Below the pieces are notes generated by a model. That model was not told where the DNA came from, ran no database searches, and saw only the letters and a list, made by a program, of their open reading frames with translations. A program made the position numbers and the translations under genes. Positions 1 to 15,450 of a stretch of 64,000 nucleotides of DNA are shown piece after piece (position 1 is the first letter of the stretch; the number at the start of each line of letters is the position of its first letter). Origin of the DNA: an archaeon (lineage in GTDB: Archaea > Nanobdellota > Nanobdellia > Woesearchaeales > SM23-78). The stretch lies in contig JAZDMG010000042.1 of assembly GCA_043801165.1 (NCBI GenBank), positions 89 through 64,088 on the forward strand. Reading direction: 5' to 3'.

Positions 1-2
1 CC

Positions 3-830
3 AGCCTTAACTGGCCAGTCCAGAACCTATTAATAGGAGACAGATCTGCTCTTGGCAGGGCTTTCTCAGGAAAGCTCGACGAGGTCAAGCTCTCGAACAT
101 AGCAAGGGATGATGCATACATCAAGACTTCTTACAACAACCAGAAGTCCCCATCAACATTCATCGGCGTAGGAGTGGAAGAATCAGAGGTCTGCGTTGAT
201 CTAGATAGTGATGGCTACAACAGTAACGGCGGATTAAGCTGCGGAGCATTTGACTGCGACGACAACAACACCTCAATCCATCCTGGAATAGCAGACGTAT
301 GCGGTAACGGCATCGATGATGACTGTGACGGGCTGATTGATGAAGGCTGTGTTTGCGCAATAGACAGCGACTGTGACGTGCTTGAAAATGTCTTTTGCGA
401 TAGCAACAACAGGGTGCTGAACAACTATGTCTGCCTTAATGCGACCTGTGTGTTCAGCACACCAAGCTTTATCAGTAACTGTTCAGACGGACTATTCTGC
501 AACGGAGCAGAGAGCTGCTCAGAAGGAGCTTGCGTGGCAGGAACACCCGTTATTTGTTCATCCCACAACATTCCAGGAATCGCGACCTGCACTGACGTAG
601 ACTCTGATTCAAACCCATGGACATGGGACTTCAGGGATCAATTCACATCAGTCTGCATGGAGCCAGGGACTTGCTCAGACGGCAGCTTGACAATTACGCA
701 CACCTGTGACGATGTAGGCTGCTCAGCGCAGTGCGATGATACACATCCATGTGCACCTACTGTCTGCAGCGGCTACAATGTGACCAATGCATGTCTGGCT
801 GACTGCGCGTGTGAGTACAACTCTTGCTGA
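3..830 (+). CDS. C-terminal part of a Cys-rich secreted/surface protein; the gene starts before the window
   Basis: The frame is open from base 3 (SLNWPVQ...FSGKLDEVKLSNIARDDAYIKTSYNNQKSPSTF, like the end of a LamG/DUF2341 domain), so the track start at 174 (GTG) is internal. Also has a MopE-like motif (DCDDNNTSIHPGIADVCGNGIDDDCDG) and a TWDFR Cys module shared with 8595-11549. Confidence 0.75.
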   Translation, partial: SLNWPVQNLLIGDRSALGRAFSGKLDEVKLSNIARDDAYIKTSYNNQKSPSTFIGVGVEESEVCVDLDSDGYNSNGGLSCGAFDCDDNNTSIHPGIADVCGNGIDDDCDGLIDEGCVCAIDSDCDVLENVFCDSNNRVLNNYVCLNATCVFSTPSFISNCSDGLFCNGAESCSEGACVAGTPVICSSHNIPGIATCTDVDSDSNPWTWDFRDQFTSVCMEPGTCSDGSLTITHTCDDVGCSAQCDDTHPCAPTVCSGYNVTNACLADCACEYNSC

Positions 831-874
831 ATAGGCAAAGCGACAAGCCCAAATAAATTATTTTTTCTAATTGA

Positions 875-907
875 TTTTCCTGATTTCTAGAGACGCATTA
901 TATTAAC
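875..907. repeat. 33-bp direct repeat R1, copy 1
   Basis: ttttcctgatttctagagacgcattatattaac; one mismatch to 1357-1389. Confidence 0.9.
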
Positions 908-1015
908 AGGTTAGGTTGGATATCCCTATCAGGAGCCTGACCTTATGATTCCAAAAGATTCATATAGTACAATTGACTACATTTATGTAGCAGGGTTGAA
1001 CGCCAAGGTGAGAAG

Positions 1016-1327
1016 ATGAAATGTCCTGAATGCGGTTCTGAACTGAAGAAAGTAGAAGTCAAGGTGCACGGCGCGAAGAGCAAAGCCACAAGCTACCAAT
1101 GCCCTGGCTGCGGCTATTTCGAATTTGACCAAGGCTCCTCTGAAAAGATCCTTGGAGAATTAAGGGATCAGCCTTTGAAGATAAAGCAGAAGATAATCAA
1201 GCTTTCTCAGGATAGGCTTGGCATGTACATCAATCGGGATGTTGCAAGAAGCCTAAACCTTAAGGGAGGGGAGGAGATTTATGTATCTGTGCCTGACAAG
1301 AAGCACCTGTTGGTGAGGATAGATTGA
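1016..1327 (+). CDS. Zn-ribbon plus AbrB/MazE-like DNA-binding protein (orphan antitoxin-like)
   Basis: CPECG...CPGCG zinc knuckles; C-terminal KIIKLSQDRLGMYINRDVARSLNLKGGEEIYV matches the swapped-hairpin AbrB pattern. Confidence 0.65.
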   Translation: MKCPECGSELKKVEVKVHGAKSKATSYQCPGCGYFEFDQGSSEKILGELRDQPLKIKQKIIKLSQDRLGMYINRDVARSLNLKGGEEIYVSVPDKKHLLVRID

Positions 1328-1356
1328 AATCAGATTACTTGCGAAATAAACACATA

Positions 1357-1389
1357 TTTTCCGGATTTCTAGAGACGCATTATATTAAC
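1357..1389. repeat. 33-bp direct repeat R1, copy 2
   Basis: ttttccggatttctagagacgcattatattaac; with copy 1 it brackets the 1016-1327 gene. Confidence 0.9.
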
Positions 1390-1427
1390 TAGCTGGTGAT
1401 ATCATCCTTTGCTTTCAAAAAAAGAAA

Positions 1428-1471
1428 AGTTTTATATACCTTAGGTGTATGTTTATACACCAAAGGTGTAT
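1428..1471 (+). promoter_or_regulatory. TATA box followed by two tandem palindromic operators
   Basis: A-rich BRE and ttttatat, then atatacc-tta-ggtgtat (1434-1450) and atacacc-aaa-ggtgtat (1455-1471), 21 bp apart, just before the ATG at 1476. Confidence 0.7.
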
Positions 1472-1475
1472 TGAT

Positions 1476-2117
1476 ATGCTTACTATGAATGAAAGCAAGG
1501 TATTAAGGCTGCTTTTCGCAGCGGTTGATGAAGACTACTCAATCAATGGGGTAGCTAGGAAATGCGGCTTAGCCCCCAACGGAGCTGCTAAGATACTCAA
1601 GAAGCTCGAGAAGGAGGGCGTCCTGAGGGCAAAAAGCATAGCCAACATCAGGTCCTATAGGATAGATTTTGAAAACCAGAAGACGCCGGCAGTGCTGGAG
1701 CTGTCCATGATGGCTGAAGCGGAAGGCAGGCTCAAAAGCAGGCTTGAAGACCTGAAAGAGCTAAGAGAGACGGCAAAAGCCTGCATCGCCTTCGGCTCTT
1801 ACATCAGCCCAAACAAAGAGCCAAAAGACCTGGACCTGCTATTCATCATTGACAAAAAAGATTACAAGCAATACAAGAAAAAGACCGATAGCTTAAGGCA
1901 CATCCTGCCAGTCAAGCTCCATGACATCACACAGACAGAAGAGGACATGGAAAGCAACATCCGAAAGAAAGACAGGATAATCATCGAAGCATTAAGGGCA
2001 GGGATAATACTCTGGGGACAAAAAACAATCATCGAGCTGATGCAAAAATGCCAGAAACAAAGCTGGGCAAATGCCTCAAAGAAGGAGGAAGGGGCGGAGA
2101 ACGCCACAAAGGGCTGA
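1476..2117 (+). CDS. HTH plus minimal nucleotidyltransferase (MNT) antitoxin-like protein
   Basis: N-terminal HTH (YSINGVARKCGLAPNGAAKILKKLEKEG) and NTase motif AFGSYI...DLDLL; overlaps the downstream HEPN gene. ATG 1476 chosen because it lies downstream of the operators. Confidence 0.8.
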   Translation: MLTMNESKVLRLLFAAVDEDYSINGVARKCGLAPNGAAKILKKLEKEGVLRAKSIANIRSYRIDFENQKTPAVLELSMMAEAEGRLKSRLEDLKELRETAKACIAFGSYISPNKEPKDLDLLFIIDKKDYKQYKKKTDSLRHILPVKLHDITQTEEDMESNIRKKDRIIIEALRAGIILWGQKTIIELMQKCQKQSWANASKKEEGAENATKG

Positions 2118-2569
2118 GACAAATAAAATTCTCAGAAGAGAAAATAAACGGGCACATCAGCAAGGCAAAGCACAACTTCAAAGCCATGCTCAGCTTTCAC
2201 AGCATAGGATTCTCAGACTGGTCGGCCTCAGCAGCGTTCTATTGCCTCTACCACGGATTGCTCGCCATGATGGCAAAGGAAGGCTTTGAGTCAAGGAACC
2301 AAAGCTGCACCTTTGCCCTGATTGATGAGCTGATCACGAAAGGGAGGATCTCACTTACAAAAGAAGAGCTGGATGGTATATATGACCAGGACGCCACAGA
2401 AGATCTCGAGCATAGCAGCAAGATACTTGACCTGCGGGAGAATATGCAATATTCTGTGAAGACATCGCTTGAGGAGCAGGAATTCCAAATCCTCAGGGAA
2501 AGGACCAAGAAGCTGTTTGATAAGATAAGAAGAGAAGTTGAGAAAGAGGGTGAAATGGCCTTCCATTGA
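2048..2569 (+). CDS. HEPN domain protein (UPF0332-like), partner of the MNT
   Basis: HISKAKHN...WSASAAFYCLYHGLLA...ESRNQSCT...LRENMQY pattern; directly follows an HTH-MNT gene. Confidence 0.75.
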   Translation: MPETKLGKCLKEGGRGGERHKGLRQIKFSEEKINGHISKAKHNFKAMLSFHSIGFSDWSASAAFYCLYHGLLAMMAKEGFESRNQSCTFALIDELITKGRISLTKEELDGIYDQDATEDLEHSSKILDLRENMQYSVKTSLEEQEFQILRERTKKLFDKIRREVEKEGEMAFH

Positions 2570-2640
2570 CTTCGGTTAATATGTATGAACCTGGGTTAAC
2601 AGATTAATGGCGCTGGCCGGAAGCCCTTAAAAAGAAAAGC

Positions 2641-2680
2641 TTTATATACGCGGGGTATACATCAATATATGTGATGTATA
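2641..2680 (+). promoter_or_regulatory. TATA box and palindromic operator of the DUF2683/RelE pair
   Basis: tttatata, then tatacatca-N7-tgatgtata (2656-2680) abutting the ATG at 2682. Confidence 0.7.
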
Positions 2681-2681
2681 T

Positions 2682-2924
2682 ATGGTTCAAGCGATGATAA
2701 ACATTGATGAGAGCACAAACAGGGTCTTGAACATAGTCAAGGCCAAGTTCGGGCTTAAGGACAAGTCTGAGGCGATAAACCTAGTCGTGAGCGAGTACGA
2801 GCAGGTCTCTTTGGAGCCTGAACTTAGGCCGGAATACCTTGGAAGGCTAGAAAAGATAAAGAAACAGAAAGGTATACGATTCAAGAGCATAGATGATCTG
2901 AAAAGGCATATTGAAAATGCGTGA
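2682..2924 (+). CDS. DUF2683-family antitoxin
   Basis: MVQAMINIDESTNRVLNIVKAKFGLKDKSEAIN resembles archaeal DUF2683; its stop overlaps the toxin start. Confidence 0.7.
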   Translation: MVQAMINIDESTNRVLNIVKAKFGLKDKSEAINLVVSEYEQVSLEPELRPEYLGRLEKIKKQKGIRFKSIDDLKRHIENA

Positions 2925-3189
2925 TTTTGAAATAAAGCCTGAACTGGATGAAAAACTTGTAAAGCTTTCTAAGAGAGACAAGAAATCTTATCAGGCTGTG
3001 ATGAACAAGATCAAAGAAATCCTGGCCTGTGCTGATGTTGAGCATTACAAAAACCTAAGATATGATATGAAAGATTCGAAGCGAGCCCACATAGGCCATT
3101 TTATCCTAGTGTTCAGCTATGACGAAGCAAAAGATTTTGTCTCATTCGAAGATTACGACCACCACGATAACGTATACCTTAAGAAATGA
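2917..3189 (+). CDS. RelE/YafQ-like addiction module toxin
   Basis: About 90 aa, YKNLRYDMKDSKRAHIGHFILVF...YDHHDNVY typical of the archaeal RelE/StbE superfamily; downstream of a small antitoxin. Confidence 0.75.
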   Translation: MRDFEIKPELDEKLVKLSKRDKKSYQAVMNKIKEILACADVEHYKNLRYDMKDSKRAHIGHFILVFSYDEAKDFVSFEDYDHHDNVYLKK

Positions 3190-3229
3190 GTTCATAAGCT
3201 TTATAAACTTCTGAGATTATTTATCTTCC

Positions 3230-3574
3230 ATGGATAAGAAAATAATCTTCAGCGTCTTGTCAGGCATCTATGTGCTGTTGCTCCTCGTGGGCTCTTTCAT
3301 AGTCAAGCCTAATTCTGTGTTTCCAGATGGTGGTTTTGATTATTATGCTCATATCATCGGTTTTTTTGTGTTTGCTGTGATGTTCTTTTTCACCCTGAAG
3401 TTCTACAGCGTGAAGAGCAAGCTCTTGACAATCGCCATCGCTTCATCAGCCTTGAGCGTCATTGTTGAGCTGCTACGCATCCCTGGCAGGGGCTTCAGCA
3501 TTGTTGACTTGGCCTTTGACATCTTAGGATCATTGATAGGCTTGGTGGTAGCATGGAGCTTTTCCAAGCGATGA
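3230..3574 (+). CDS. VanZ-like membrane protein
   Basis: Four hydrophobic segments with AH..GF, VELLR.PGR.FS..DL..D..G motifs. Confidence 0.7.
   Translation: MDKKIIFSVLSGIYVLLLLVGSFIVKPNSVFPDGGFDYYAHIIGFFVFAVMFFFTLKFYSVKSKLLTIAIASSALSVIVELLRIPGRGFSIVDLAFDILGSLIGLVVAWSFSKR
3551..3574. repeat. 24-bp direct repeat R2, copy a (vanZ-like 3' end)
   Basis: gcatggagcttttccaagcgatga is identical at 5608-5631 and nearly identical to the uppP start at 7738-7760. Confidence 0.9.
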
Positions 3575-3650
3575 AGCATCAGTGATGGCGGCTCTCAAAA
3601 ACAAAAAATCTATATGATAATTTTGAGTTACCATATGGCAACGAGGAGTT

Positions 3651-3781
3651 ATGGGAAATTTCGCCGAGGTCTAATACCTCGCCCTTTAGGGCGAAATTTC
3701 TCATCCCAAAAACTCGCGATAAAGCGAGAGGCGAAAAACCTTGGGCTTTAGCCCGAGGATAGCCTCGAGCAGCGAGTTTTT
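3651..3781. mobile_element. Highly structured non-coding element, possibly an IS200/IS605-derived palindromic remnant
   Basis: Nested inverted repeats: atgggaaatttcgcc/ggcgaaatttctcat enclosing gaggt/acctc and gccctttagggc; aaaaactcgc/gcgagttttt enclosing ccttgggctttagcccgagg. The CTTTAG-loop hairpins resemble IS200/IS605 ends. No tnpA/tnpB nearby. Confidence 0.4.
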
Positions 3782-3787
3782 GTTATT

Positions 3788-3853
3788 ATGGCTTCATTGA
3801 CTGAAAAGGAAAAAGAATCATTGCTCATCCTGCTGAAAAAACTTCTTCCGTAA
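3788..3853 (+). pseudogene. Possible 5' stub of an HTH-type gene
   Basis: MASLTEKEKESLLILLKKLLP* reads like the first helix of the HTH-MNT proteins but stops after 21 codons. Confidence 0.35.
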
Positions 3854-3966
3854 CACGGATAGAATTCTTCCGCTTTTTCTCAGCCGCATTTAATAAATGG
3901 GGTGCGATTAGAATGCTTAAGCGCATTCAAAGCACTGAACATTTTTTAGCCAAAAAAACCAAAATG

Positions 3967-4009
3967 TTTATATATCACCATATACTAGTAAGTAGTATAT
4001 AGTGATATA
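3967..4009 (+). promoter_or_regulatory. TATA box overlapped by a long inverted repeat (AbiEi-type operator)
   Basis: tatatcac-c-atatacta-gtaag-tagtatat-a-gtgatata directly before the ATG at 4012. AbiEi antitoxins are known to autorepress through promoter inverted repeats. Confidence 0.75.
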
Positions 4010-4011
4010 AA

Positions 4012-4644
4012 ATGACTTTCAGGCTTTTAATCAAAAAACTGTACCTTTATGAAAACAGATACATAGACAGCACTACATTGAAAGAATGGTGCGAAAAACT
4101 AAGGCTGGGATACAACAAAGCGATAATATACCTTACCGCCAACAAATACCTTGTAAGAATACTCAAAGGCACATTCTACAAGCTAAGCCTTGAAGAAAGA
4201 AAATTCAAAAAGATAAACGTGATCCACATGGAAGCCATTATGGAAGCCCTCAAAATGAAAAAGATCAACAATTGGTATTTCGGCCTGGAAACAGCCAAGA
4301 AGCTCAACGGCCTCACTCATGAATACTACGCCACCGATTACGTTATCAACGACACCATCTTCCGGGCAAAGCCGATAAACATACTGGACCGCAAGGTGCG
4401 CTTCGTCAAGCTCAAAACTTCCCTCTTCGGCTTCGGCATAACTGAGCACAACGGCATAAAGGTGTCTGACAACGAAAAGACCCTGCTAGACACAATATAC
4501 CTCGCCAGATACGACGGCTTCTCCGATGAAGAGGTAAAAAACCGCATATCAGACATGGTCAAGCATTGCTCTAAAAAAAAGCTTTTAAGCTACGCAAAAG
4601 AATACAGTGGATCCATGAAAAGCTTTGTGGAGGGGCTCTCTTGA
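4012..4644 (+). CDS. AbiEi-like type IV TA antitoxin/transcriptional regulator
   Basis: LVRILKGTFY, YFGLETA..LNGL, VSDNEKTLLD motifs; coupled (4-nt overlap) to an AbiEii gene. Confidence 0.75.
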   Translation: MTFRLLIKKLYLYENRYIDSTTLKEWCEKLRLGYNKAIIYLTANKYLVRILKGTFYKLSLEERKFKKINVIHMEAIMEALKMKKINNWYFGLETAKKLNGLTHEYYATDYVINDTIFRAKPINILDRKVRFVKLKTSLFGFGITEHNGIKVSDNEKTLLDTIYLARYDGFSDEEVKNRISDMVKHCSKKKLLSYAKEYSGSMKSFVEGLS

Positions 4645-5549
4645 GCAAAATCATAGACCAACTAGCAGCAGACGCAGGAATAAGCAATAAAACCCTGCTG
4701 GAAAAGGATTTGCGCCTGCATATGTTGCTGCATGCGATTTCAAAAGACGAATATCTCCAGGCGAACCTTGCCTTCAAAGGAGGCACCTGCCTTATCAAAT
4801 GCTACCTCGGATACTACAGGTTCTCAGAAGACCTCGATTTCACATGGATAAAGCAGAAGGAATTTGAGAATAAGAGCCAGAAGGAAATCAGGAGAATGAT
4901 TTCAAAAGAGCTTGATATCATGCTAAAAATCATAGGTGAGATGACGCATAAGCTTGGCTTGGACTTCAGGCCTGAGAAAAACAACCACAAGTATGTCGAA
5001 TTCGGCGGAAGCAACAAATTCCTGACCTTGAAAGCATGGTATGAATCTGAAATTCTCAAAACCCCGCAATTCATCAAGATACAGGTAAACTTCCTGGAAA
5101 AGATCATTTACCCATTCAAAACCCTGGAAGCAGAGCCGATCATCAAAAAGATAAGCCGGAAAGAGTTCGAATTCCTGTTCCCAGAATATAAAGACCTGCT
5201 TGAAGCTACCAAAATAAAATGCTATGACCTCAGGGAAATCCTGGCGGAGAAAGCAAGAGCCATACTGACAAGACGAGAAATCAAGGCCAGAGACTTCATC
5301 GACATATTCATGATATTGAAAAAAGAGAACATCGGTATTGCGACGCTAAAAGACCATATCATAGAAAAAGTAAGATTCATGATGAGATACGACAAATACG
5401 TCAAGAACCTCAAAGGATTCAGGCTGAGCAAATTCCTAATGGAGGAAGAAGAGAAACTGCTCCTAAAGCCCCTAGACCCCGGATTTGAAATATTCCTGAA
5501 AGAAACTGAAGAATATATTCTAGAATTAATGGAAGAGTTAAAAAAATAA
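4641..5549 (+). CDS. AbiEii-family nucleotidyltransferase toxin
   Basis: FKGGTCLIKCYLGYYRFSEDLDF and EILAEKARAIL.R...ARDFIDI signatures; TTG start. Confidence 0.9.
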   Translation: MSKIIDQLAADAGISNKTLLEKDLRLHMLLHAISKDEYLQANLAFKGGTCLIKCYLGYYRFSEDLDFTWIKQKEFENKSQKEIRRMISKELDIMLKIIGEMTHKLGLDFRPEKNNHKYVEFGGSNKFLTLKAWYESEILKTPQFIKIQVNFLEKIIYPFKTLEAEPIIKKISRKEFEFLFPEYKDLLEATKIKCYDLREILAEKARAILTRREIKARDFIDIFMILKKENIGIATLKDHIIEKVRFMMRYDKYVKNLKGFRLSKFLMEEEEKLLLKPLDPGFEIFLKETEEYILELMEELKK

Positions 5550-5607
5550 TTATGAAGAATGAAAAAATTGGCCAGACCTGCTATCCACAAGCGACATGGT
5601 GTTGCTG

Positions 5608-5631
5608 GCATGGAGCTTTTCCAAGCGATGA
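5608..5631. repeat. 24-bp direct repeat R2, copy b
   Basis: Identical to 3551-3574. Upstream it reads VLLAWSFSKR* in the vanZ frame; downstream tcgttca echoes uppP codons. Confidence 0.9.
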
Positions 5632-5657
5632 TGCGTCGTTCATCTTATTTATATAGC

Positions 5658-5685
5658 TTTCGATTTTAATCGAAATATTTATAAA
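5658..5685 (+). promoter_or_regulatory. Palindromic operator and TATA box
   Basis: tttcgatt-tt-aatcgaaa (5658-5675), then tttataaa; the half-site atcgaaata recurs at 5701. Confidence 0.65.
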
Positions 5686-5708
5686 CTAAGGCATATCATT
5701 ATCGAAAT

Positions 5709-6299
5709 ATGAAAAAGACTGAGCAGGTATTCCGTGAGATACTGTACCAGGCGCTGGAGCATAAAAAACGGATCATGACGCAGGCAGAACTGTCTAAAGA
5801 GCTAGGATTCTCCCTTAGCACCATTAGCCTGGCGGTAAAAAAGCTTGAAAGGATGAACGCCATCAGCATAGGGCGTATGAGCTTCAAGGTGATAGACCCA
5901 AAAAAAATACTATACCTCTGGGCTTCTGAAAGAAACCTCGAAAAAGATATCATATACAAGGCGCGGGCGGATATGCCTGTGCGCGAGATCGAGAAGAGCA
6001 TGCCAGGAATAACATACGCAGCTTATTCAGCCTATAAGCTTAAGTTCAAAGAAGCAGCCGCTGATTATTCTGAAGTATACGTTTACTGCGGCGAAAATGA
6101 TTTGCCAGATATCAAGAAGCGGTTCCCTGAGAGCAACGGCCCGCCAAACATTTTCGTCCTGAAAAAAGACGAGAACATGAGCCGCTACTCAGCCACAGGA
6201 ACATTGGCGCAGGTGTTCGTCGACCTATGGAATCTAAGGCAATGGTACGCCTCAGATTTCCTGAAAGCATTAGAAGCTAAGATGGAGCTGATGGTATGA
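5709..6299 (+). CDS. Winged-helix regulator with an AbiEi-like C-terminus (type IV TA-like antitoxin)
   Basis: HTH MTQAELSKELGFSLSTISLAVKKL; AAYSAY and QVFVDLWN motifs; ATGA overlap with an NTase gene. Confidence 0.65.
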   Translation: MKKTEQVFREILYQALEHKKRIMTQAELSKELGFSLSTISLAVKKLERMNAISIGRMSFKVIDPKKILYLWASERNLEKDIIYKARADMPVREIEKSMPGITYAAYSAYKLKFKEAAADYSEVYVYCGENDLPDIKKRFPESNGPPNIFVLKKDENMSRYSATGTLAQVFVDLWNLRQWYASDFLKALEAKMELMV

Positions 6300-6904
6300 A
6301 AGAGTTCTGGAATTCCCTCCTAACAGAGAAAAGCTGGCTACTGTTACATGAGATAGTAAAGAAGTATGATTTCATACTGATAGGGGGATGGGCGGTTTAT
6401 CTGCTCACAAAACAGCAGAAATCCAAGGACATAGACATAGTGGTTGATATAAGCGAGCTTGACAAGCTAAAGAAAGAAGGATTGATAAAGAATGACCGCC
6501 TGAAGAAATATGAGCTTAAAAAAGAGGAGATAGATGTAGATATATACGTGGCTTATTATTCTGAAATAGCCATCCCCGCAGAAGAGATCAGCAAATACAT
6601 TATTAATGTTGAAGGATTCAAAATTCCGAGGCCTGAAGCAATGATAGTCCTAAAGCAAATGGCTTACACAAGCAGGGAAGCATCGGTTAAAGGCCAGAAA
6701 GACAGGATAGACATACTCTCATTGGTGTTTTTCACAGGATTCAATGCTGAGGCGTACCGGCAGATTATAGCCAAGCATAACCATCAGGGCTATCTTGCGC
6801 AGCTTAGAAAGATTATCAAAGGATTCAAGGAGTATGATGCGCTAAATATGACTCCGAGAGAACTAAAGCTGAAAAAAGAAGCAATTCTCAAAAAATTGGG
6901 ATGA
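6296..6904 (+). CDS. Nucleotidyltransferase (AbiEii-like superfamily)
   Basis: FILIGGWAV...SKDIDIVVD and K..KDRIDI motifs. Confidence 0.75.
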   Translation: MKEFWNSLLTEKSWLLLHEIVKKYDFILIGGWAVYLLTKQQKSKDIDIVVDISELDKLKKEGLIKNDRLKKYELKKEEIDVDIYVAYYSEIAIPAEEISKYIINVEGFKIPRPEAMIVLKQMAYTSREASVKGQKDRIDILSLVFFTGFNAEAYRQIIAKHNHQGYLAQLRKIIKGFKEYDALNMTPRELKLKKEAILKKLG

Positions 6905-6930
6905 CTCGAAGCGTGTTCATAAACCGAAAG

Positions 6931-6998
6931 ATATATAAATTCCTATAAATAGGAATACTTATTCCTATAAAAAGGAATGAACTCCCCTAAAAATAGGA
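6931..6998 (+). promoter_or_regulatory. TATA box with three tandem palindromic operators at a 22-bp period
   Basis: atatataa, then cctataaatagga (6942), cctataaaaagga (6964) and cctaaaaatagga (6986). Confidence 0.75.
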
Positions 6999-7006
6999 CG
7001 ATTAGC

Positions 7007-7639
7007 ATGCTGAACAAAGAATATGATATATTAAAGCCTTTTGCCGAGAGGCCATGGGAAAAGCTGACATTCAAGCAGGTGAAAAAAGCTTCGAAAAAGA
7101 AATCAGTGAGCTTTGTCTTCAAATCATTGAAGAAATCTGTAAAGGAAGGCATCTTGGTGGAAGAAAAAATCGCTAATATCATCCTCTACTCCGTCGATTT
7201 CAAATCAGGAAAAGCATTGTCCTCGTTAGGATACATCCTTGAGCACATCGGCTGGTCTAAAAAGCATATCCCTTATGATGATATGCAGGCAGCAATTGAC
7301 AAGATACCTTTCAAAAGCCACATAACTCTGATAACAGGCAGCTATGCCAAAGGGACTCAGAGGCAAGATTCTGACATCGACGTGGTCGTCATAATAGAAG
7401 ACCCCTGCGATCCAAAAAGAGTGTACGCTGAGTTGAATCTGCACGCAGAGCTAAGCATGCCTAAAATCCATCTTTATGTATTCAGGAACTCTGAATTCTT
7501 GCTGATGCTTAATAATGATAAGGCTAACTACGGAAAGGAAATAGTTAAAAACTGCCTGATATTAACCCAAGGGCAGGCATATCTAAAACTGATCGGCGAG
7601 GCAATAAAGCATGGATTTGATGATAAGCGTCTATCTTAA
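7007..7639 (+). CDS. HTH plus MNT nucleotidyltransferase
   Basis: ITGSYAKGTQRQDSDIDVVVI with an N-terminal HTH-like region. An alternative ATG at 6977 lies inside the operator. Confidence 0.8.
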   Translation: MLNKEYDILKPFAERPWEKLTFKQVKKASKKKSVSFVFKSLKKSVKEGILVEEKIANIILYSVDFKSGKALSSLGYILEHIGWSKKHIPYDDMQAAIDKIPFKSHITLITGSYAKGTQRQDSDIDVVVIIEDPCDPKRVYAELNLHAELSMPKIHLYVFRNSEFLLMLNNDKANYGKEIVKNCLILTQGQAYLKLIGEAIKHGFDDKRLS

Positions 7640-7712
7640 AAGGGCTGAAAATGAAGTCCTGATTGCTGAGAAGCTCAAAAACATTCTTATCAAACATAAA
7701 GAAAGTGATTGA
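7611..7712 (+). pseudogene. Truncated HEPN gene (N-terminal 33 codons)
   Basis: MDLMISVYLKRAENEVLIAEKLK overlaps the MNT stop as the intact HEPN at 2048 does, and resembles HEPN helix 1; it stops 26 bp before uppP. Confidence 0.65.
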
Positions 7713-7738
7713 GAAGAACAATCATTTGTGAGAATAAC

Positions 7739-8500
7739 ATGGATCTTTTCCAAGCGATAATACTAGGGATCGTTCAGGGAATAACAGAATGGCTTCCCAT
7801 ATCCAGCTCAGGCCATCTTGTGCTCTTCCAGGAGCTGTTCGGCTTTGGAGCCAACGTAGCCTTTGACGTGATGCTTCATGTCGCCACCCTTCTTGTCATT
7901 CTCATTGTCTTCTGGAAGGACATCTTGGCTATAATCAAGTCATTGTTTGCCTGGCGCTGGGATGAGCACACCAGGATGCTGCTGTTCATAGTCCTGGCCA
8001 CGATTCCGACAGCCCTGATAGGGCTGCTGTTCAAGGACTGGCTGCTAGGATTGTTCACAAATATGCTGTTATTAGGCGTTTTTTTCATCATTAATGGCAT
8101 CATCCTGCTCATGACTAGGTTTGCCAAGGAAGGCAAGGAATTGGGCTGGAAACACTCGATAATGATGGGGTTTGCCCAGGGATTGTCGATAATCCCTAGT
8201 TTGTCAAGGAGTGGCCTGACGATCTCGACAGGTATGTTCTTTGGAGTCAAGAAAGAGAACCTTGTGAAGCTGTCATTCCTCATGGCAGTGCCTGCCATCC
8301 TGGGGGCAGCGATACTTGAACTGAACCAGCTAGTCATGACTGATCTTATGCCGATGATTGCCGGAACAGTTGTTTCGCTCGTTGTTGGCTACATATCTTT
8401 ACGCTGGCTTATAAAGCTGGTAGAGAATAGCAAGTTCCATGAGTTCGGGTATTACTGCATAGCGATAGGACTTATCATATTAGCTGTTGTGATATTCTAG
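7739..8500 (+). CDS. uppP: Undecaprenyl-diphosphate phosphatase (BacA family)
   Basis: LGIVQGITEWLPISSSGH and Q.L.IIP..SRSG.TI motifs; polytopic. The ATG at 7739 lies in R2 copy c. Confidence 0.93.
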   Translation: MDLFQAIILGIVQGITEWLPISSSGHLVLFQELFGFGANVAFDVMLHVATLLVILIVFWKDILAIIKSLFAWRWDEHTRMLLFIVLATIPTALIGLLFKDWLLGLFTNMLLLGVFFIINGIILLMTRFAKEGKELGWKHSIMMGFAQGLSIIPSLSRSGLTISTGMFFGVKKENLVKLSFLMAVPAILGAAILELNQLVMTDLMPMIAGTVVSLVVGYISLRWLIKLVENSKFHEFGYYCIAIGLIILAVVIF

Positions 8501-8594
8501 AGAATTTAATCAAGCGCGCCTGCATCAAGCAGCAATCAGAATATGGCGCGGTTTATGTGAAGTTTAAAAATAAAAATAATAAAAATTTTTGAGT

Positions 8595-11549
8595 TTACCT
8601 TCTCAGCAGCAATGAAGCAATGAAGACTCCCGCCAATGCCAGCAGGAACATTCCTGTCATCATGGTGCCTGTTGAGGCTCCGTTGACAACAGCTCCTGTT
8701 ATGCTATTGGTCTTGTCAAGCACAGAGGTGACAGGGTCTGTTATATCCTCATCCGCATTCTCTGCTTTCAGCTGGATGTTGCCAGTCACTACACTGCCTT
8801 GAGTCTGTTCGACAGGATCAGATTCCTCACTCTCTGAGGGATGTGTCTCTGTCACAACAGGAGCCGGCATGACTTTGCAGCTTTGGGTCTCTGTCTTGCT
8901 TGCGCCGTTAAGGGTGCATGTCCTTGTCTGCTTCTCAGCAGCACAAACACTCCAATTTCCGCATTGCCAATTGGTGGTGGTTGTTATTGATGATCTCCCG
9001 CCGCCACCGCCTCCGCCTGAAGACGACTTATGAACAATTGGAGTGTATTGGCAGGTGCAATCCTCAAGGCATGTGTCTATCGTGTTAGGATCCTTGTCGT
9101 AGCATTCATCGTCAGAGAGGCATTGTGCACCGCACCTTTCCTTGTCACATGTGTGAGTTATTGTCTCATTTCCTGTGGTGCATCTGTCGTTATCCTCATC
9201 GCAGACCGAGACGAACTGATGCCTGAAATCCCATGTGAAATGGAAATTATCAGGGCTGTTGAAGCAGGTCTCGATTAATGATATGTTGAAACCGTTGCAG
9301 ATCTTTCCTGTTCCGCCGCACTGCCCTTCAGTGCAGACATCGTTGTCTGAGCACCAGAGACCGTCATCACAGCTTGTCCCGTTAGCCTTGTACTTTGTGT
9401 TGCCTGTGTCGATCCACTGAGTCCCGATGGTTGTGTAGGTGCAGTTGACTATCGCTCCTGCTGTGCAGGCGTAGTCCCTCTGCTCCTGTTCCTTCTGCTC
9501 TTTCTCATTGCAGACGGTGGTGTTTGACCATCTCTTGTTTCCTGTGTCATACCATCCGTCGAGCGAGTCACAGTTTAATGTGCTTCCGCCGCTGCAGGAG
9601 CAGCTTGTTGTCAGGTCGCATGTGCTGCCGAAGTGCTTGATGTTCCCGTCGCAGTAGTCTGCGCAGTCACTGTTGCCTGAGCATGTCGCTCCGCACCAGT
9701 CCTTTGTGCACGAGTAGATGAAGTTGTCAGGTGTGCATCCGCAGCTCGCGTCGCAGTTGCCGTAGGTGTCTCTTAATCCTCGCTTTGCGCCTATGCAGTT
9801 GGTGGTTGTCTGCTCGCAGTTCCCGTTGTTGTTGGTGTTCGGAAGCTCGCAGGTTTCTGTTCCTGAGATTAATCCGTCTCCGCAATAATCATTGCTGTCA
9901 TGCTTGCATGTGCAGTTGGCAAGGCAGATGTCAGTTGTATAGGCAATCTGATCGTCACAGTCAGCGTCGCTCTCGCAGTCTGCAGTGCAGTGATCTTTGC
10001 TGCATTGGTGTGATATGCTCTGATTTCCGTTGCTGCATGAATCATTCGCTTCTATGCAGGTGCTTGTGAAAGCAGACCTGAAATCCCATGTGTAATGGAT
10101 GTTGTCAGGGTTGTTGTCGCATGTCTCGATCTTGATTATATTCAATCCGGCACAGCTCACAGCATCTCCGCCGATGCACTGGCCTACGTCGTTGCAGACC
10201 TCGTTTCCGTTGCAGTAAAGGCCGTCTGAGCAGCTTGTGTTGTAAGGAGCGTATATATTGCCAGGGCATGCTGCTGCGCTGCCTGTGCAATACTCTCCAG
10301 GGTCGCATACTCCGTTGGCTGATCTGCACTCGAATGTGCTTGGCTTGAATCCGTTTGTCGGGCAGTCATTAGCTGTCCCTGTGCAGTATTCTTTTACATC
10401 GCATACTCCTGCGCTGTTCCTGCATATGTATGTGTCAGGTCTCTTGCCGTCAGCTGGGCATTCAGGGTTTGTTCCTGTGCAGTATTCTGGAACGTCGCAT
10501 GTTCCTGCGCCTGCTCTGCAAAGAGCAGTTCCAGGAGCGTACTCTTCGGTGCATACTCCTGATTGGCAGACATCGTTTGCTTCGCATGTCCCTGCTTCTG
10601 TCGCGCAGATTGTCCCGTCTGCCTTGTTCCTTGTGCTTCCGCTGTCAACCCATCTTGTTGAGGTGACAGTGTATGAGCAGCTCAATAGGCTGGCTGAGCA
10701 GGTGTAGTCTCTCTCCTCCTGTTCCTTCTGCTGCTTCTCCTTGCACAATCCGTCATCGATCCATCTGCTGTTGCCGTTATCGTACCAGCCGTCCTTTGAG
10801 TCGCAGTCCTCGACAACGGTCTCATCTGTCCAGCTGACATGGTCTTTGCATGTGGCCTGGCAGTAGAAGTCATGGAGCTGCCTGTGCTTCTTCAAGAAGC
10901 TTCCTTCGCAGAAGTTCACATAGCCATTGTAAGAATCAATGTGCCTGTTGCTGTAATCATAGATGCACGGAGAGCCTGTTCCCTCGTTGCAGGAATAATC
11001 CCTGTCCTCACATCCAGTGCTGTAGGCGTAGCAGCCGTCGTTATCGTTGCAGTGCTCTGCTTCTGAAGTTATTGACAAGACACAGGTATTGCCGTTCCAG
11101 GTGTAATGCCATACTTGCCTCACTTCGCTGTCTGAGCACATCCATGCATCAGGAGGGCAGTTGTAGATCTTTAATTTAGAGGTCTCTGTGTCTGAGTCGC
11201 AGCAGCAAGGGTCGCAGCTGGTCTCTGTGGCTGTGCACTTCACATCGAACTCCTTTGCGGAATTGAGGGCTATGGTGCCGTAATCAGCAGGCCCGACTGA
11301 TACAGGGACGTCGAATACGCTGGCAGCATTTGTCCCTGAGGCGAGGACCTTGTTGACTCCATTGCCGATCAGCTCTACCTTGTAGTTGGCTGGCCCGAGC
11401 ATAGGGTCAACTGTACACGTAAAACTTGCAGTATTCCCTGACTTTATTGTCTGGTCTCCTGACATGAAGACGAAGATAGCTGCCACCAGGCTTGCTGAAA
11501 GCAGCAAGACTGTCATTATAACCAAAACGCTCTTGTTAATTTTCATCAT
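8595..11549 (-). CDS. Cys-rich repeat surface protein (signal peptide, disintegrin-like repeats, duplicated modules, poly-Gly linker, C-terminal TM anchor)
   Basis: MMKINKSVLVIMTVLLLSASLVAA signal; CRxxxGxCDxxEYCTG repeats; two DGWYD and two TWDFR modules; G7 linker, WQCGNWSVC..QTRTC, TM helix then RR. Confidence 0.85.
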   Translation of the reverse strand: MMKINKSVLVIMTVLLLSASLVAAIFVFMSGDQTIKSGNTASFTCTVDPMLGPANYKVELIGNGVNKVLASGTNAASVFDVPVSVGPADYGTIALNSAKEFDVKCTATETSCDPCCCDSDTETSKLKIYNCPPDAWMCSDSEVRQVWHYTWNGNTCVLSITSEAEHCNDNDGCYAYSTGCEDRDYSCNEGTGSPCIYDYSNRHIDSYNGYVNFCEGSFLKKHRQLHDFYCQATCKDHVSWTDETVVEDCDSKDGWYDNGNSRWIDDGLCKEKQQKEQEERDYTCSASLLSCSYTVTSTRWVDSGSTRNKADGTICATEAGTCEANDVCQSGVCTEEYAPGTALCRAGAGTCDVPEYCTGTNPECPADGKRPDTYICRNSAGVCDVKEYCTGTANDCPTNGFKPSTFECRSANGVCDPGEYCTGSAAACPGNIYAPYNTSCSDGLYCNGNEVCNDVGQCIGGDAVSCAGLNIIKIETCDNNPDNIHYTWDFRSAFTSTCIEANDSCSNGNQSISHQCSKDHCTADCESDADCDDQIAYTTDICLANCTCKHDSNDYCGDGLISGTETCELPNTNNNGNCEQTTTNCIGAKRGLRDTYGNCDASCGCTPDNFIYSCTKDWCGATCSGNSDCADYCDGNIKHFGSTCDLTTSCSCSGGSTLNCDSLDGWYDTGNKRWSNTTVCNEKEQKEQEQRDYACTAGAIVNCTYTTIGTQWIDTGNTKYKANGTSCDDGLWCSDNDVCTEGQCGGTGKICNGFNISLIETCFNSPDNFHFTWDFRHQFVSVCDEDNDRCTTGNETITHTCDKERCGAQCLSDDECYDKDPNTIDTCLEDCTCQYTPIVHKSSSGGGGGGGRSSITTTTNWQCGNWSVCAAEKQTRTCTLNGASKTETQSCKVMPAPVVTETHPSESEESDPVEQTQGSVVTGNIQLKAENADEDITDPVTSVLDKTNSITGAVVNGASTGTMMTGMFLLALAGVFIASLLLRR
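9001..9017. repeat. 17-bp poly-Gly linker string shared by three surface-protein genes, copy 1
   Basis: ccgccaccgcctccgcc; identical at 16253-16269 and 23695-23711. Confidence 0.85.
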
Positions 11550-11575
11550 TTTTCTTTCCCCCTTGCACCCTTTTA

Positions 11576-12892
11576 TCAAAACCTGACACCAATCAGTCCG
11601 TATTTGGTTGTCCTGTTGCCGTCAAGCTTGACCACTGTCCCTGCGTATTCGAAGGACCTGTTCTGTCCAATCCTGACTCCGGCTCCGAACACCAGCTCTA
11701 TGTCTCCGCCTTTGAGCGGGACCATGAACATGGCCTGGTATCTTTGTATGAGCCCGTTGAGGCTCTTGTTGCCGATGCATTCATACGGATCCTTAATGTC
11801 AGCTCCTGTCAGCTTGTCCCTTGCGGTCTGTATGAGCTTGTGCTCGATGCCCATCCATTCGTAGCCGAACAATGCTCCAAGCCCAAACCTGGTCTTGCCT
11901 TCTCTGCCAGCGACCAAGTTGAATCCGCCTCCAAGCGCATGGGCAGTTGCTGTGCTCTCAAGGTCAGTCCTTCCTATGATTGTCTGTCCCTTGACATTGA
12001 ACTCATCATATTGTAAGTTGTTGCTTGCCATCTCTGGGAATGTCATCTCTCCGAACACTCCAAAGTAAGCCCTCAGCTTCTCGCCGAGCTTGAAGTTGAT
12101 AGGCATGAGGTCCAATCCTGCTCTCTTTCCGTCAGAGTAGACGTCCAGTAATGCGCCGCCTCTCCTCTTGATGACTTCCTTCTCGACAATCTTGTCAACA
12201 AGCACCTTCTTTTCAACTTCTCTATCAACAATCTTTTCCTTGATTACTGGATCGCAGCATTTCTCTGTGTAGACAAATGTCGGTACGCTTGCCAGCAATT
12301 TCCTGCCGTCTTCGATGGCTGGGAATGCTACGTAAAGGGTTCCATCCTTCAGGCCGTAGTTCTTGATGTTTTCGATGAATGCTGGGAACGCATGCTCTCC
12401 GCTTCCTGCTATCTGTAGCGGGTTGTGGAGCGGCTCCCCTGGCTTTCCAGTCTTATAATTGAATTCGCTTATCACCATGTCAAGAGGAAGCTGTAATCCT
12501 CCTTTCTTTATGTGGATTATCGGGCTTCCATTGTTGTCTGCCACTCCGAATGATCCTCCGCAAGGAACTATCCTTGGAGGGCTCTTCAGGTTGGCGCCCT
12601 GCATTTCCTTGACTATTGTGACAAGGTTATGATTAGAATCGTAGGTTGATATGCTGAAAGGCGGTATTGTCGCCGTATTGTCTCCCTGCGGGCTTGATAT
12701 TCCTGGCTTGTTCTGCTGTGCGTCAGGAGTTCCGGCATACCCTAATGCTGGCAGGCCAAGTCCGGCCAACCACAATGCGAATGCTGCTGCTCCGAGCCCC
12801 CATCTCTGGTTCATGCTCAATGGACTGGTTCTTTTTAGAATTGCGTTTGCCATGACGGCATTTGTGATCTCATCTGTGTTCACGACTTCCAT
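11576..12892 (-). CDS. Secreted hypothetical protein with an amphipathic beta-strand C-terminal domain
   Basis: 438 aa; hydrophobic signal-like segment at about residues 31-53; C-terminal alternating strands ending YGLIGVRF. Confidence 0.75.
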   Translation of the reverse strand: MEVVNTDEITNAVMANAILKRTSPLSMNQRWGLGAAAFALWLAGLGLPALGYAGTPDAQQNKPGISSPQGDNTATIPPFSISTYDSNHNLVTIVKEMQGANLKSPPRIVPCGGSFGVADNNGSPIIHIKKGGLQLPLDMVISEFNYKTGKPGEPLHNPLQIAGSGEHAFPAFIENIKNYGLKDGTLYVAFPAIEDGRKLLASVPTFVYTEKCCDPVIKEKIVDREVEKKVLVDKIVEKEVIKRRGGALLDVYSDGKRAGLDLMPINFKLGEKLRAYFGVFGEMTFPEMASNNLQYDEFNVKGQTIIGRTDLESTATAHALGGGFNLVAGREGKTRFGLGALFGYEWMGIEHKLIQTARDKLTGADIKDPYECIGNKSLNGLIQRYQAMFMVPLKGGDIELVFGAGVRIGQNRSFEYAGTVVKLDGNRTTKYGLIGVRF

Positions 12893-13365
12893 AATAGATC
12901 CCCCCGAATCGTTTGTTGGTAATTAGCTCTAGGCTATATAATTTACTCTTTATTTCCTACGGAGAATCCTCACAGGATTTATAAAGCTTTTGCTTTTGTT
13001 CTCTTTGTCCAGTGATAACTAATTTATCCAGTAACCCGCTAGTGACTGATATCCTGCAGTGTTTTGTTATAGAAGATACTGTTGTAGCCTTAACTGATTC
13101 CGTTGATCCAAAACAGTACATTAATAAGATGAGGCAAATAGATGGGCAATTAGCCCAAGGGTGGGTACAAATTGTACATACCCTTATGATGAAAGAGAAT
13201 ATTCTGACCTGTTTATAGAAAAAATCATTGCTAAACGAACCGAAAAAATTCCGTTTTTTCTTGCGGTGAGTTTATTAAGCACTTCTGATGCTAGGGATCA
13301 GTCAATGATGCGGCCTGCAGCGAATCATGACTGCCAAGAACCGATGCAATTGTAAGAACCGAAAT

Positions 13366-13397
13366 ATTTAAATAGTAAGGTAAACTAACTTACCTTA
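13366..13397 (+). promoter_or_regulatory. TATA box and palindromic operator
   Basis: atttaaata, then taaggtaa-actaac-ttacctta (13376-13397) running into the ATG. Confidence 0.7.
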
Positions 13398-13987
13398 TGG
13401 TAAGTTTTTATACCTACTTGGGATTATACCTGAATGACCTAAGAAAGAAAGTCAGCTTAAGCGAATTTGAAAAGCACTTCAAAACACCGCACCAAACCAT
13501 AAAAAAACACTTGGCTGTCCTTGTCAGTTCAAGAATACTGCTGGAAGAAAAAAAAGCGCGGTTCAGGTTTTATAGCCTAAACCTGAAAAACCCTCTGCTC
13601 GTTGAGTACCTGTCCATTTGCGAAAAAGAGAGGCTATTTGCGCTCCTTGAAAAAAGCACACTGATTAACAGGCTATACCAGCTGGCATCAGGCAGCCTGA
13701 AAAACGCGCTGATATTCGGCTCAGCAACAACAAGTAAAGATTACGATGATATTGATTTGCTCGCATTAACGAAAGATGGCCGGCTAAAAGCAGAGCTAAA
13801 GCAGTTCGAGAATACCTATGGTAAAAAGGTGCACTTGATACAGACAGGTGAAAAAGATCTCACTCCTGCTTTCCTTGAGGAGATAAAGCAAAAGCACATA
13901 ATCCTGAATAACCACGACTACATAATTAGGGTGATCTACAAAAATGAGCTTGGACTGGTGCAGGAAACAAGGTATGAAGCTGATTGA
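13397..13987 (+). CDS. ArsR-like HTH plus MNT nucleotidyltransferase
   Basis: HTH PHQTIKKHLAVLVSSRIL; NTase motif LIFGSATTSKDYDDIDLLAL. Confidence 0.8.
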   Translation: MVSFYTYLGLYLNDLRKKVSLSEFEKHFKTPHQTIKKHLAVLVSSRILLEEKKARFRFYSLNLKNPLLVEYLSICEKERLFALLEKSTLINRLYQLASGSLKNALIFGSATTSKDYDDIDLLALTKDGRLKAELKQFENTYGKKVHLIQTGEKDLTPAFLEEIKQKHIILNNHDYIIRVIYKNELGLVQETRYEAD

Positions 13988-14093
13988 GCCAAACGATAAT
14001 CTGGCAGAAGAATATTTCCAAAACGCCGAAGCTACATTAAGAGTCACAAGCCTCATAAAGGATTCTGGCTCCAACATCGCAACATTCGCCTAA
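13944..14093 (+). pseudogene. Truncated HEPN gene (49 codons)
   Basis: MSLDWCRKQGMKLIEPNDNLAEEYFQNAEATL overlaps the MNT stop and resembles a HEPN N-terminus; it ends at TAA 14091-14093, close to the next promoter. Confidence 0.65.
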
Positions 14094-14149
14094 TGCATAA
14101 CCATATAAACGAAAAGTTTATATATCTGTTAAGATGGATAACCAGGTTT

Positions 14150-14770
14150 ATGATGGTTGATGATGACTTGCTAAGGCGCCTGGAAGGCCTGCACACGATA
14201 GAGACCTTAGCCAAAGCCCTGGGGATGGGCAGGCAGAGCGCCATAAACTTTGCCAGCAGGCTAAGAAAGCAGGGATACCTGTCAAGCAGCGGGGGAGGAA
14301 AACAGCCAAGGTTCTATAAAATAACTGCCCGGAAGCAGAGAGAAAGAGTCCCTGGCATGTTTGACATACTGAACAAGCATTCTCCCCAGAAGCTCAGCCC
14401 CTGGTATGACCACCAGGTGCATGGGCGCTACGGAGTAGAGGAAGCATTGGTAGACGCTGTCAAGACAGGCAGTTTTCGGGCAATACTTGCAAGCCTGAGC
14501 CTATTCAACCACGTAAAGGATTGGCCCAGGCTTCACAGGCTCGCGGATGATAATGGCTGCTGGCAGAAGGTCGGCGCTTTGTACGATGCCGCAAGAATGC
14601 ACCTGCGAGTCAAGAGAATGCCGGAAAGATATCGGAACATATCAGGAAAAGAATATGAATGGGTTAAGCTTACATCGCTAGAAAACAGAGATAATTTTTC
14701 TGACGTGCAGCAGAAATGGCATGTCTACATACCTTTCAATGAAAAAGATTTGAAGTCGTGGAATGAATGA
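14150..14770 (+). CDS. Winged-helix antitoxin-like regulator
   Basis: TIETLAKALGMGRQSAINFASRLRKQG HTH; TATA aagtttatata about 30 bp upstream of ATG 14150; ATGA overlap with an NTase gene. Confidence 0.65.
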   Translation: MMVDDDLLRRLEGLHTIETLAKALGMGRQSAINFASRLRKQGYLSSSGGGKQPRFYKITARKQRERVPGMFDILNKHSPQKLSPWYDHQVHGRYGVEEALVDAVKTGSFRAILASLSLFNHVKDWPRLHRLADDNGCWQKVGALYDAARMHLRVKRMPERYRNISGKEYEWVKLTSLENRDNFSDVQQKWHVYIPFNEKDLKSWNE

Positions 14771-15417: not shown

Positions 15418-15450
15418 TTCTAAAAAATTGATAAAAAAAATAAAATAATT

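Follow-up and report, generated by a model that had tools for sequence, protein, structure and literature searches.

Accessory genes are known to gather beside conserved genes in several ways. In bacteria, elements, among them cis-mobilizable elements (CIMEs), may accrete in tandem at an attachment (att) site, as Streptococcus thermophilus illustrates with its islands related to ICESt1 and ICESt3, situated where the fda gene has its 3' end (PMC5704250). Defence hotspots that are flanked by core genes and contain no mobile-element genes have been described as core defence hotspots (cDHS) in Pseudomonas aeruginosa (PMC10250203) and as defence islands in Escherichia coli (PMC10121019). Gene cassettes are also collected by integrons, including archaeal ones (Ghaly et al. 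2022, PMC9668308), and by clusters of attC sites lacking integron-integrases (CALINs). The locus considered here belongs to an archaeon of the order Woesearchaeales and lies on contig JAZDMG010000042.1 (assembly GCA_043801165.1), of which a 64-kb stretch, positions 89 to 64,088, was analysed and is termed the window. Between a vanZ-like gene and uppP, the gene for undecaprenyl-diphosphatase, a short string read in two frames occurs three times and brackets small toxin–antitoxin (TA) and defence modules. At the same position relatives display empty sites, variable cargo, repeat-bounded transferred cassettes and a near-isogenic pair that differs by the presence or absence of one cassette.

Composite islands of the staphylococcal cassette chromosome (SCC) and pseudo-SCC type at rlmH provide an analogue for such stacking. 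Tycheposons of Prochlorococcus reportedly have tyrosine recombinases of their own, and the sites described for them are said to be mainly tRNA-type genes. DPANN archaea have very small genomes, and their defence and TA repertoires differ greatly between close strains; to our knowledge, few mobile elements are known in these organisms. The vanZ/uppP locus represents one concrete route, resolved to the nucleotide, by which such variation arises.

A dual-coding string at the vanZ/uppP junction

The 24-mer GCATGGAGCTTTTCCAAGCGATGA terminates the vanZ-like gene (copy a) and recurs unchanged as copy b, and a third copy with three mismatches, copy c, harbours the start of uppP (Table 1). The original prediction had reported two exact copies and a near copy, which holds, the near copy showing two mismatches in the 23-mer then used. 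A repeat search extends the family to 38 nt, at 3543–3580, 5600–5637 (87%) and 7729–7766 (68%).

Read in triplets from its GCA to its TGA, the 24-mer encodes AWSFSKR and a stop, the end of the 114-aa VanZ-like open reading frame (ORF). The other frame, from ATG through a GAK codon to GCG, gives M(E/D)LFQA, and the uppP of the window starts with MDLFQA at the ATG at 7739; both readings had been recognized at the outset. The 22-nt overlap of vanZ and uppP has the consensus ATGGAnnTTTTCCAAGCnnTrA. The inverted repeat TGGA-N5-TCCA, singled out in the original prediction, is indeed present in the core, but its arms measure only 4 bp. It is the sole symmetry of the string and arises because the W and S codons dictate it. 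In the window and in the related loci L031 and L033, the copies away from uppP end in GATGA and the uppP copy ends in GATAA. In L030, the empty site of this clade, the vanZ stop is the TAA lying within uppP codons 7–8.

No tRNA gene was detected in the window and no meaningful Rfam match in positions 1–12000; this is accordingly no attachment site of the tRNA type. The overlap string likewise has no match among the viral contigs of IMG/VR.

Empty and occupied sites among relatives

Loci of relatives, designated by L and P numbers, were retrieved through UppP homologues, the closest of which bear names that mark the organism as a Woesearchaeota-like DPANN archaeon. At three loci the site is empty and the overlap of vanZ with uppP measures exactly 22 nt: L030, whose UppP is 84% identical to that of the window and whose junction reads ..gcagtATGGATATTTTCCAAGCGATAAtactt; L037 (65%), on a 570-kb contig; and the P0006 contig (79%), known from gene coordinates alone. 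At least eight other relatives are occupied and differ in cargo, which comprises about 12 module types, including MNT/HEPN variants, winged helix-turn-helix/nucleotidyltransferase (wHTH/NTase) pairs, two AbiE types, Bro-N, AAA_14/DUF4143, DUF5678/Asp-protease and ribbon-helix-helix (RHH) genes. In all seven occupied loci with readable DNA (L001, L031/32/35, L033/34, L038, L059, L060–63 and L064; the P0004 contig is known from annotation only) the overlap string occurs both where vanZ stops and where uppP starts, in some cases also between cassettes.

The simplest arrangements are a lone RHH gene in the P0004 contig, a single MNT+HEPN cassette (cassette A) in L031/32/35 and another HTH-MNT+HEPN in L001/L036. 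L033/34 carry cassette A, then a wHTH+NTase pair (cassette B), then an AAA_14/DUF4143 ATPase. DUF5678 and an Asp-protease accompany an inverted AbiE-like pair in L059; L060–63 accommodate an inverted AbiE-like pair, an A-like MNT+HEPN and an inverted B-like pair; L064 has Bro-N and an inverted B-like pair. L038 contains Bro-N twice, an NTase pair, AbiEi/AbiEii and an inverted HEPN/MNT pair.

The three empty sites support the proposal that the string is the overlap of a former vanZ–uppP operon. Together with the variable cargo, they bear out the further claim that the uppP start serves repeatedly as an insertion or recombination site at which uppP is regenerated. Both had been named in the original prediction as things to look for in relatives: an empty site with vanZ overlapping uppP, and cargo that changes from one relative to the next.

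That the repeats might be a product of chance or of faulty assembly can be given almost no weight. The general risk attached to metagenome assemblies is all that speaks for it, and the 24-mer pattern, matched three times in the window, was matched in none of 100 dinucleotide-preserving shuffles. A repeat of 24 nt is also far below usual assembly k-mers (k = 141, to judge from contig names like k141_). The window-type vanZ–cargo junction is present in run X1, and run X2 contains the L031 allele at 100% identity. As the same architecture recurs in independent ENA, JGI and Logan assemblies, an artefact is excluded for practical purposes.

Cassette transfer and breakpoints

Cassettes are far more alike between lineages than the genes on either side of them. 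L031 and L033 share 87.6–92.6% nucleotide identity in cassette A, against 56.7% in vanZ and 68.2% in uppP; for the window and L033, 89.2% in cassette B compares with 58.6% in vanZ and 72.8% in uppP. The cassette order is A–B in L033 and B–A in the window, and the junction of copy b with cassette B recurs at L033 2796, there with cassette A on its left. The right end of cassette A, gaagaacaatcatttgtgagaataa (the HEPN stop followed by gaataa), abuts the repeat in the window, L031 and L033. When copies are compared in register, identity drops to a background of 20–30% directly outside the 21–27-nt repeat, unless the copy is a vanZ relic. These comparisons show cassettes moving horizontally between lineages as units bounded by the repeat. 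The tcgttca downstream of copy b, previously taken for a trace of uppP, does not survive this comparison: identity to uppP beyond the repeat is 8/39, which is background, and the match is due to chance.

The near-isogenic loci L060 and L064, whose flanks are 95–98.5% identical, capture a single event. L060 has an additional A-like cassette of 1.2 kb at the repeat of its second vanZ gene (vanZ-2), and the repeat of ∼32 nt is duplicated. Up to core position 21, the left copy in L060 is the same as the only copy of L064; the right copy shows five mismatches in its left-hand portion and agrees with L064 from position 14 onwards. This pattern carries the signature expected of a reciprocal crossover within AGGCATTA (core positions 14–21) between the chromosomal copy and a diverged copy borne by the cassette. 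The right copy lies away from uppP and no gene makes use of it, so the duplication stems from the mechanism itself and has not been kept by selection.

This last point bears on the idea that insertion is untargeted, by illegitimate joining between sister chromosome copies or by template switching, and that specificity is only apparent, imposed by selection for intact vanZ and uppP. In favour of it, the repeat corresponds almost exactly to the 22-nt overlap, the minimum needed to keep both genes. TA islets at 13025–15420 are inserted relative to L030/L031 without a flanking repeat, and the entire region between two giant surface-protein genes is variable. The idea is nevertheless improbable: the right copy of L060 is present despite serving no gene, and has diverged as if imported. 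Recent events, such as that in L038 whose copies are identical at 25/25 positions, already have background flanks, whereas random duplications would vary in extra length. The same cassettes with the same ends also occur in lineages with far more diverged flanks.

Homology at the junctions

When the vanZ alleles of L031, L033 and the window are compared, no exact match of 14 nt or more exists apart from the repeat, and in uppP no exact match is longer than the repeat between the window and L033 or between L031 and L033. Recombination between diverged strains would for this reason be funnelled to the string. The extent of shared homology varies, from the bare 24-mer through 32 nt and 144 nt (a relic of vanZ-1 in L060) to a whole vanZ duplicate in L038 (391 nt at 85%). 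Relics of vanZ stand beside cargo in four lineages, namely the window, L038, L060 and L064.

Copy b illustrates the point. In L038 an intact vanZ-2 (6676–7026) lies downstream of AbiEii, and positions 5600–5627 of the window match its 3' end at 89%. The corresponding frame of the window relic, termed vanZ', reads ..DMVLLAWSFSKR and is closer to AMVLAWTFSKR* of L038 than to GLVVAWSFSKR* of the window's own vanZ. Copy b thus closes a second, degraded vanZ that was imported with AbiE. The original prediction was right that vanZ-like codons precede copy b; its view of copy b as a repeated junction gives way to that of a vanZ 3' relic. The AbiE modules of the window and L038 are 78.8% identical at the nucleotide level, yet uppP is ∼65% identical (protein) and vanZ 36%. 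The flanking genes are themselves discordant: the window vanZ is 48% identical to that of L033 and 89% to that of L031, and the respective values for UppP are 77% and 80%.

The 3' end of uppP adds a further discontinuity. Positions 7739–8307 are 85–89% identical to L030/L031 and positions 8308–8500 are unalignable to them, which indicates that uppP is a recombinant mosaic in its last ∼190 nt. A contig of run X2 has 8308–8594 replaced by 1024 other bases.

Mechanism of insertion

The explanation favoured here, with moderate confidence, is homology-guided recombination at the conserved dual-coding string. In this Woesearchaeota-like DPANN clade vanZ and uppP would ancestrally overlap by 22 nt. 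Since the overlap is read in two frames, it is nearly the only long identity that fast-evolving vanZ alleles share across strains. Small self-contained TA and defence modules may then enter by reciprocal (Campbell-type) recombination inside the string, between the chromosome and incoming DNA that bears its own copy, acquired at the same locus of another strain. Such DNA could arrive as a circle excised between flanking copies, or as a fragment with a vanZ gene on it. A single crossover would then leave the insert bordered by the string at both ends, the left copy forming the vanZ stop and the right the uppP start. Repeated events would stack modules, after which redundant vanZ genes, repeat copies and toxin genes probably erode by deletion. 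A circular intermediate, and joining by general recombination of the host rather than by a dedicated integrase, are the parts of this scheme that are inferred.

Homology-guided recombination is suggested by the variable homology length, the vanZ relics beside cargo, the discordance of vanZ and uppP and the mosaic 3' end of the latter. It is further suggested by B-like cassettes that occur in both orientations, and elsewhere without the repeat, by a second cassette in the island with an unrelated 34-nt repeat and by the fact that no recombinase was found in the 40 window ORFs or near the loci of relatives. Several observations pull the other way. A length of 21–25 nt is short for recombination of the RadA type, and the ∼8 nt that match perfectly at the L060/L064 crossover are better suited as overlap region for a tyrosine recombinase. 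The repeat edges are sharp and nearly identical across independent events. Neither circle nor go-back joints were seen, in material limited to assembled Logan contigs from two related sediment runs. Neither this scheme nor a dedicated recombinase explains how a module comes by its first copy of the string.

Such a recombinase would make the string a true attachment site. It would be encoded elsewhere in the genome (a tyrosine recombinase, Xer-like or integrase), and cassettes without an integrase would move as circles with one site each, in the manner of SCC-type elements and CIMEs or of an integron without attC hairpins. This reading is possible, if only tentatively so. It would account well for repeat boundaries that are sharp and constant over independent insertions of unrelated cargo and for the abutment of the right end of cassette A against the repeat alike in three genomes. 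The reciprocal-crossover signature within an identical segment of ∼8–14 nt (positions 14–21 in L060/L064, between 7 and 20 in L031) is also as expected, and tandem accretion with three att copies is its known outcome in bacteria (PMC5704250). On the other hand, searches for recombinase domains (Pfam, including Phage_integrase) recovered none in the 40 ORFs of the window, in line with the original prediction, and none is annotated around the relatives' loci, up to 10 kb away or to the contig ends. Conservation of the string is fully explained by dual coding, and its symmetry is confined to the 4-bp inverted repeat. Cargo lies in both orientations, as with the B-like modules inverted in L060 and L064, and B-like modules are found without the repeat at the unrelated loci L065 and L066. 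The length of homology is inconstant and extends to whole vanZ copies, the nearby second cassette uses a different repeat, and the string is missing from the IMG/VR viral contigs. The more specific form of this proposal, in which a dedicated unlinked recombinase, for example Xer-like, uses the 22-nt dual-coding overlap as its att site and circulates integrase-less defence cassettes among diverged Woesearchaeota, is doubtful. Were it true, it would amount to integron-like gene capture in archaea without attC hairpins or a linked integrase, at a landing pad shielded from drift by the two genes that read it.

An integrase making staggered cuts ∼22–34 nt apart, such as a casposase or spacer integrase of the Cas1 type, with the target duplicated by gap repair, is highly improbable. 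At two sites of the island single cassettes stand between direct repeats of 22–34 nt, and for both sites relatives offer an empty counterpart with one copy. This size range matches that of CRISPR repeat duplication. However, the repeat length is not constant, and the copies of L060/L064 differ at 5/32 positions, one being equal to the empty site, which fits an imported copy and not a fresh duplication. Moreover, the cassettes lack terminal inverted repeats and no Cas1 is encoded in the window. A DNA transposon with target-site duplication was rejected on similar grounds: there is no transposase, the cassette ends have no inverted repeats, the repeat varies between 22 and 34 nt and its copies can differ. 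The promoter upstream of uppP in L038, L059 and L060, considered as a relic of the vanZ promoter, matches a general TATA consensus, which does not tell such a relic from any other promoter.

Gene content of the window

The features of the region are listed in Table 1. From left to right, vanZ and copy a are followed by a first interval (cassette relic, hairpins, AbiEi/AbiEii and vanZ'), copy b, a second interval (cassettes B and A, the latter with a deleted HEPN gene), copy c and uppP.

Table 1. Features of the vanZ–uppP region and of a neighbouring cassette, in window coordinates
Feature	Position	Strand	Remarks
Second repeat-bounded cassette, with Zn-ribbon/AbrB-like gene 1016–1327	874–1389	+	34-nt direct repeats 874–907 and 1356–1389
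vanZ-like gene, 114 aa; last 22 nt are the former uppP overlap	3230–3574	+	weak Pfam VanZ match, 24.6 bits
Repeat copy a (attL-like), vanZ stop region	3551–3574	+	exact 24-mer
Left-end relic (promoter/operator) of MNT/HEPN-type cassette, 77 nt	3575–3651	+	similarity to L060
Strong hairpin pair, terminator or dispersed element?	3652–3781		minimum free energy -65.9 kcal/mol, z = -6.0
AbiEi/AbiEii module with promoter	3941–5549	+	78.8% nt identity to L038 4993–6594
vanZ', second vanZ relic, internally deleted, 58 nt	5550–5607	+	match to L038 vanZ-2
Repeat copy b, end of vanZ' relic and left edge of cassette B	5608–5631	+	exact 24-mer
Cassette B: wHTH 5709–6299 and DUF6036-like NTase 6296–6904	5632–6920	+	89.2% nt identity to L033 2818–4090
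Cassette A: HTH-MNT 6977–7639 and HEPN remnant ∼7611–7731	6921–7737	+	93.5% nt identity to L031 7794–8533, 89.4% to L033 1610–2328
Repeat copy c (attR-like), uppP start	7737–7760	+	3 mismatches to a and b; ATG 7739
uppP (BacA, undecaprenyl-diphosphatase), 3' 190 nt mosaic	7739–8500	+	Pfam BacA/UppP 1.3e-75

The vanZ orthologues of L033 and L059 have a precomputed VanZ match of the strongest grade; for the vanZ and uppP of the window no exact-protein match is on record. Within the first interval, positions 3598–3651 are 76% identical (blastn) to L060 7253–7306, the sequence 3' of the vanZ-2 repeat in that locus. The hairpin pair has a reverse-complement copy at L033 1–139, at the edge of that locus, and in run X1 its depth is ∼30x, against ∼1–11x in neighbouring sequence. 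It looks like a dispersed structured element and occurs once in the region, not at each junction. The AbiEi gene (4012–4644; PADLOC 1.9e-45) overlaps the downstream AbiEii gene (4641–5549; PADLOC 3.3e-61, Pfam 2.4e-29) by 4 nt. Judged by its sequence, the pair at 4012–5549 has the predicted make-up of an AbiE system, in which an AbiEi antitoxin gene overlaps a downstream AbiEii nucleotidyltransferase gene.

In the second interval B and A are fused, with no repeat at their joint. The DUF6036-type match of the NTase in cassette B is weak. Cassette A lacks its first 48 nt and ∼355 nt of HEPN, a deletion that is internal when set against L031 and L033; the MNT gene itself is undamaged and continues into the HEPN remnant, giving 220 aa instead of 210. 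A related allele of cassette A in run X1 retains part of the HEPN region lost in the window. The earlier description of whole TA modules between the copies applies to AbiEi/AbiEii, wHTH/NTase and HTH-MNT; it has to be amended for the second interval, which consists of two cassettes without a repeat between them and with HEPN internally deleted. A wHTH+NTase pair followed by an AAA_14/DUF4143 ATPase occurs in two unrelated contexts (L033 2895–5521 and L065 6001–8696), which suggests a three-gene module of which the window copy is without the ATPase. No relatives of the cassette B and A proteins were found in the IMG/VR viral contigs.

Other insertions in the island

The second repeat-bounded cassette lies upstream of vanZ. 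Its 34-nt repeats are 97% identical and delimit a 482-bp unit with a cassette body at 908–1355. In L031 the repeat is present once (6051–6096), with flanks that match to the left and to the right, and this represents the empty site of this unrelated cassette. A motif common to the 34-nt repeat and the overlap string was sought; the two share only TTTTCC, which is unconvincing.

Closer to vanZ, L031 (7279–7400 against 2641–3135 of the window) has lost most of a gene pair that in the window is found upstream of vanZ, encoding a DUF2683-like protein (80 aa) and a 92-aa protein. The deletion joins two stretches of AAAAGA type, and the last codons of the 92-aa gene remain. What had been considered a 540-bp insertion of the window relative to L031 (2568–3107) is in fact a deletion in L031.

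Downstream, the islet at 13025–15420 spans 2.4 kb and comprises three genes (196 aa, 225 aa and a 216-aa DUF6036-like NTase), in place of which L030/L031 have 50–70 nt. No flanking direct repeat was found around it, and its insertion differs in style from those at vanZ/uppP. In L033 a unit of ∼130 nt occurs twice downstream of uppP (6430–6557 and 7751–7862), once before each of two extra TA modules. It consists of a GC-rich hairpin, GGGCGCGCC...GGCGCGG, followed by CACTGGACA..GCGTAAGGCTTTTAAAC, and the window holds only its first half, at 8515–8560. To judge from this unit, there appears to be a second accretion site 3' of uppP.

Significance and comparison with known systems

The locus shows how a string read in two frames, near identical across lineages whose flanks are at 57–73% nucleotide identity, can act as a shared landing pad at which modules are added, swapped and eroded, and how the start of an essential gene, uppP, can be rebuilt at every event. 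A natural series is formed by three empty alleles, others that carry one cassette or several, and a near-isogenic pair; on it, general recombination and a hidden recombinase can be tested against each other. The significance would be high if a dedicated recombinase acting on a dual-coding site were found.

Of the systems described, integrase-less att-flanked elements (CIMEs) and defence hotspots between core genes come closest. Tandem accretion with CIMEs and SCC elements shares the layout. Direct repeats from a gene end mark the junctions, at least three copies bracket stacked elements, relatives offer one-copy empty sites, the elements are without a recombinase of their own and the target gene is regenerated. 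Boundary repeats and a single copy in the empty sites of relatives, by which such islands are recognized, are both found here. In contrast, no integrase or ccr-type recombinase is known for this locus, be it in cis or in trans. The locus resides in an archaeon, and its cargo consists of TA modules of 0.5–2 kb and not of decayed integrative and conjugative elements. In addition, what is restored on both sides is the overlap of two genes, homology is variable and whole copies of the left gene travel with the cargo. The locus shares the layout of att-flanked tandem accretion and the logic of its empty sites; the recombinase that defines this class was found neither in the window nor near the loci of relatives.

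Integrons and CALINs are similar in that small cassettes, often of TA type, gather at one chromosomal site and are shuffled between genomes. Here, however, the cassettes have their own promoters and operators, some are inverted and the repeat is coding sequence of two host genes. Assignment to integrons or CALINs was rejected: there is no intI among the window ORFs or annotated near the relatives, and the repeated unit is a 22–25-nt coding string with 4-bp arms and no attC hairpin. Tycheposons and their cargo-only satellites are reminiscent of the locus in their streamlined genomes, gene-end hotspots, tandem arrays and remnants with partial att repeats; they differ in that no tyrosine recombinase is linked to the vanZ/uppP locus.

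The resemblance to the core-gene-flanked hotspots of P. aeruginosa and E. coli lies in strain-variable defence and TA cargo between the same core genes, with no recombinase or transposase genes and presumed recombination in the flanks; the variable cargo and the lack of mobile-element genes that characterize such hotspots are both found at this locus. Unlike in those hotspots, the breakpoints are resolved to a 22–25-nt string that is duplicated with each insertion, and cassettes can be traced between lineages. What is new with respect to all these systems is an attachment sequence that is the overlap of two genes and is rebuilt on both sides, in a DPANN host, with cargo-only units of TA size and co-travelling vanZ copies.

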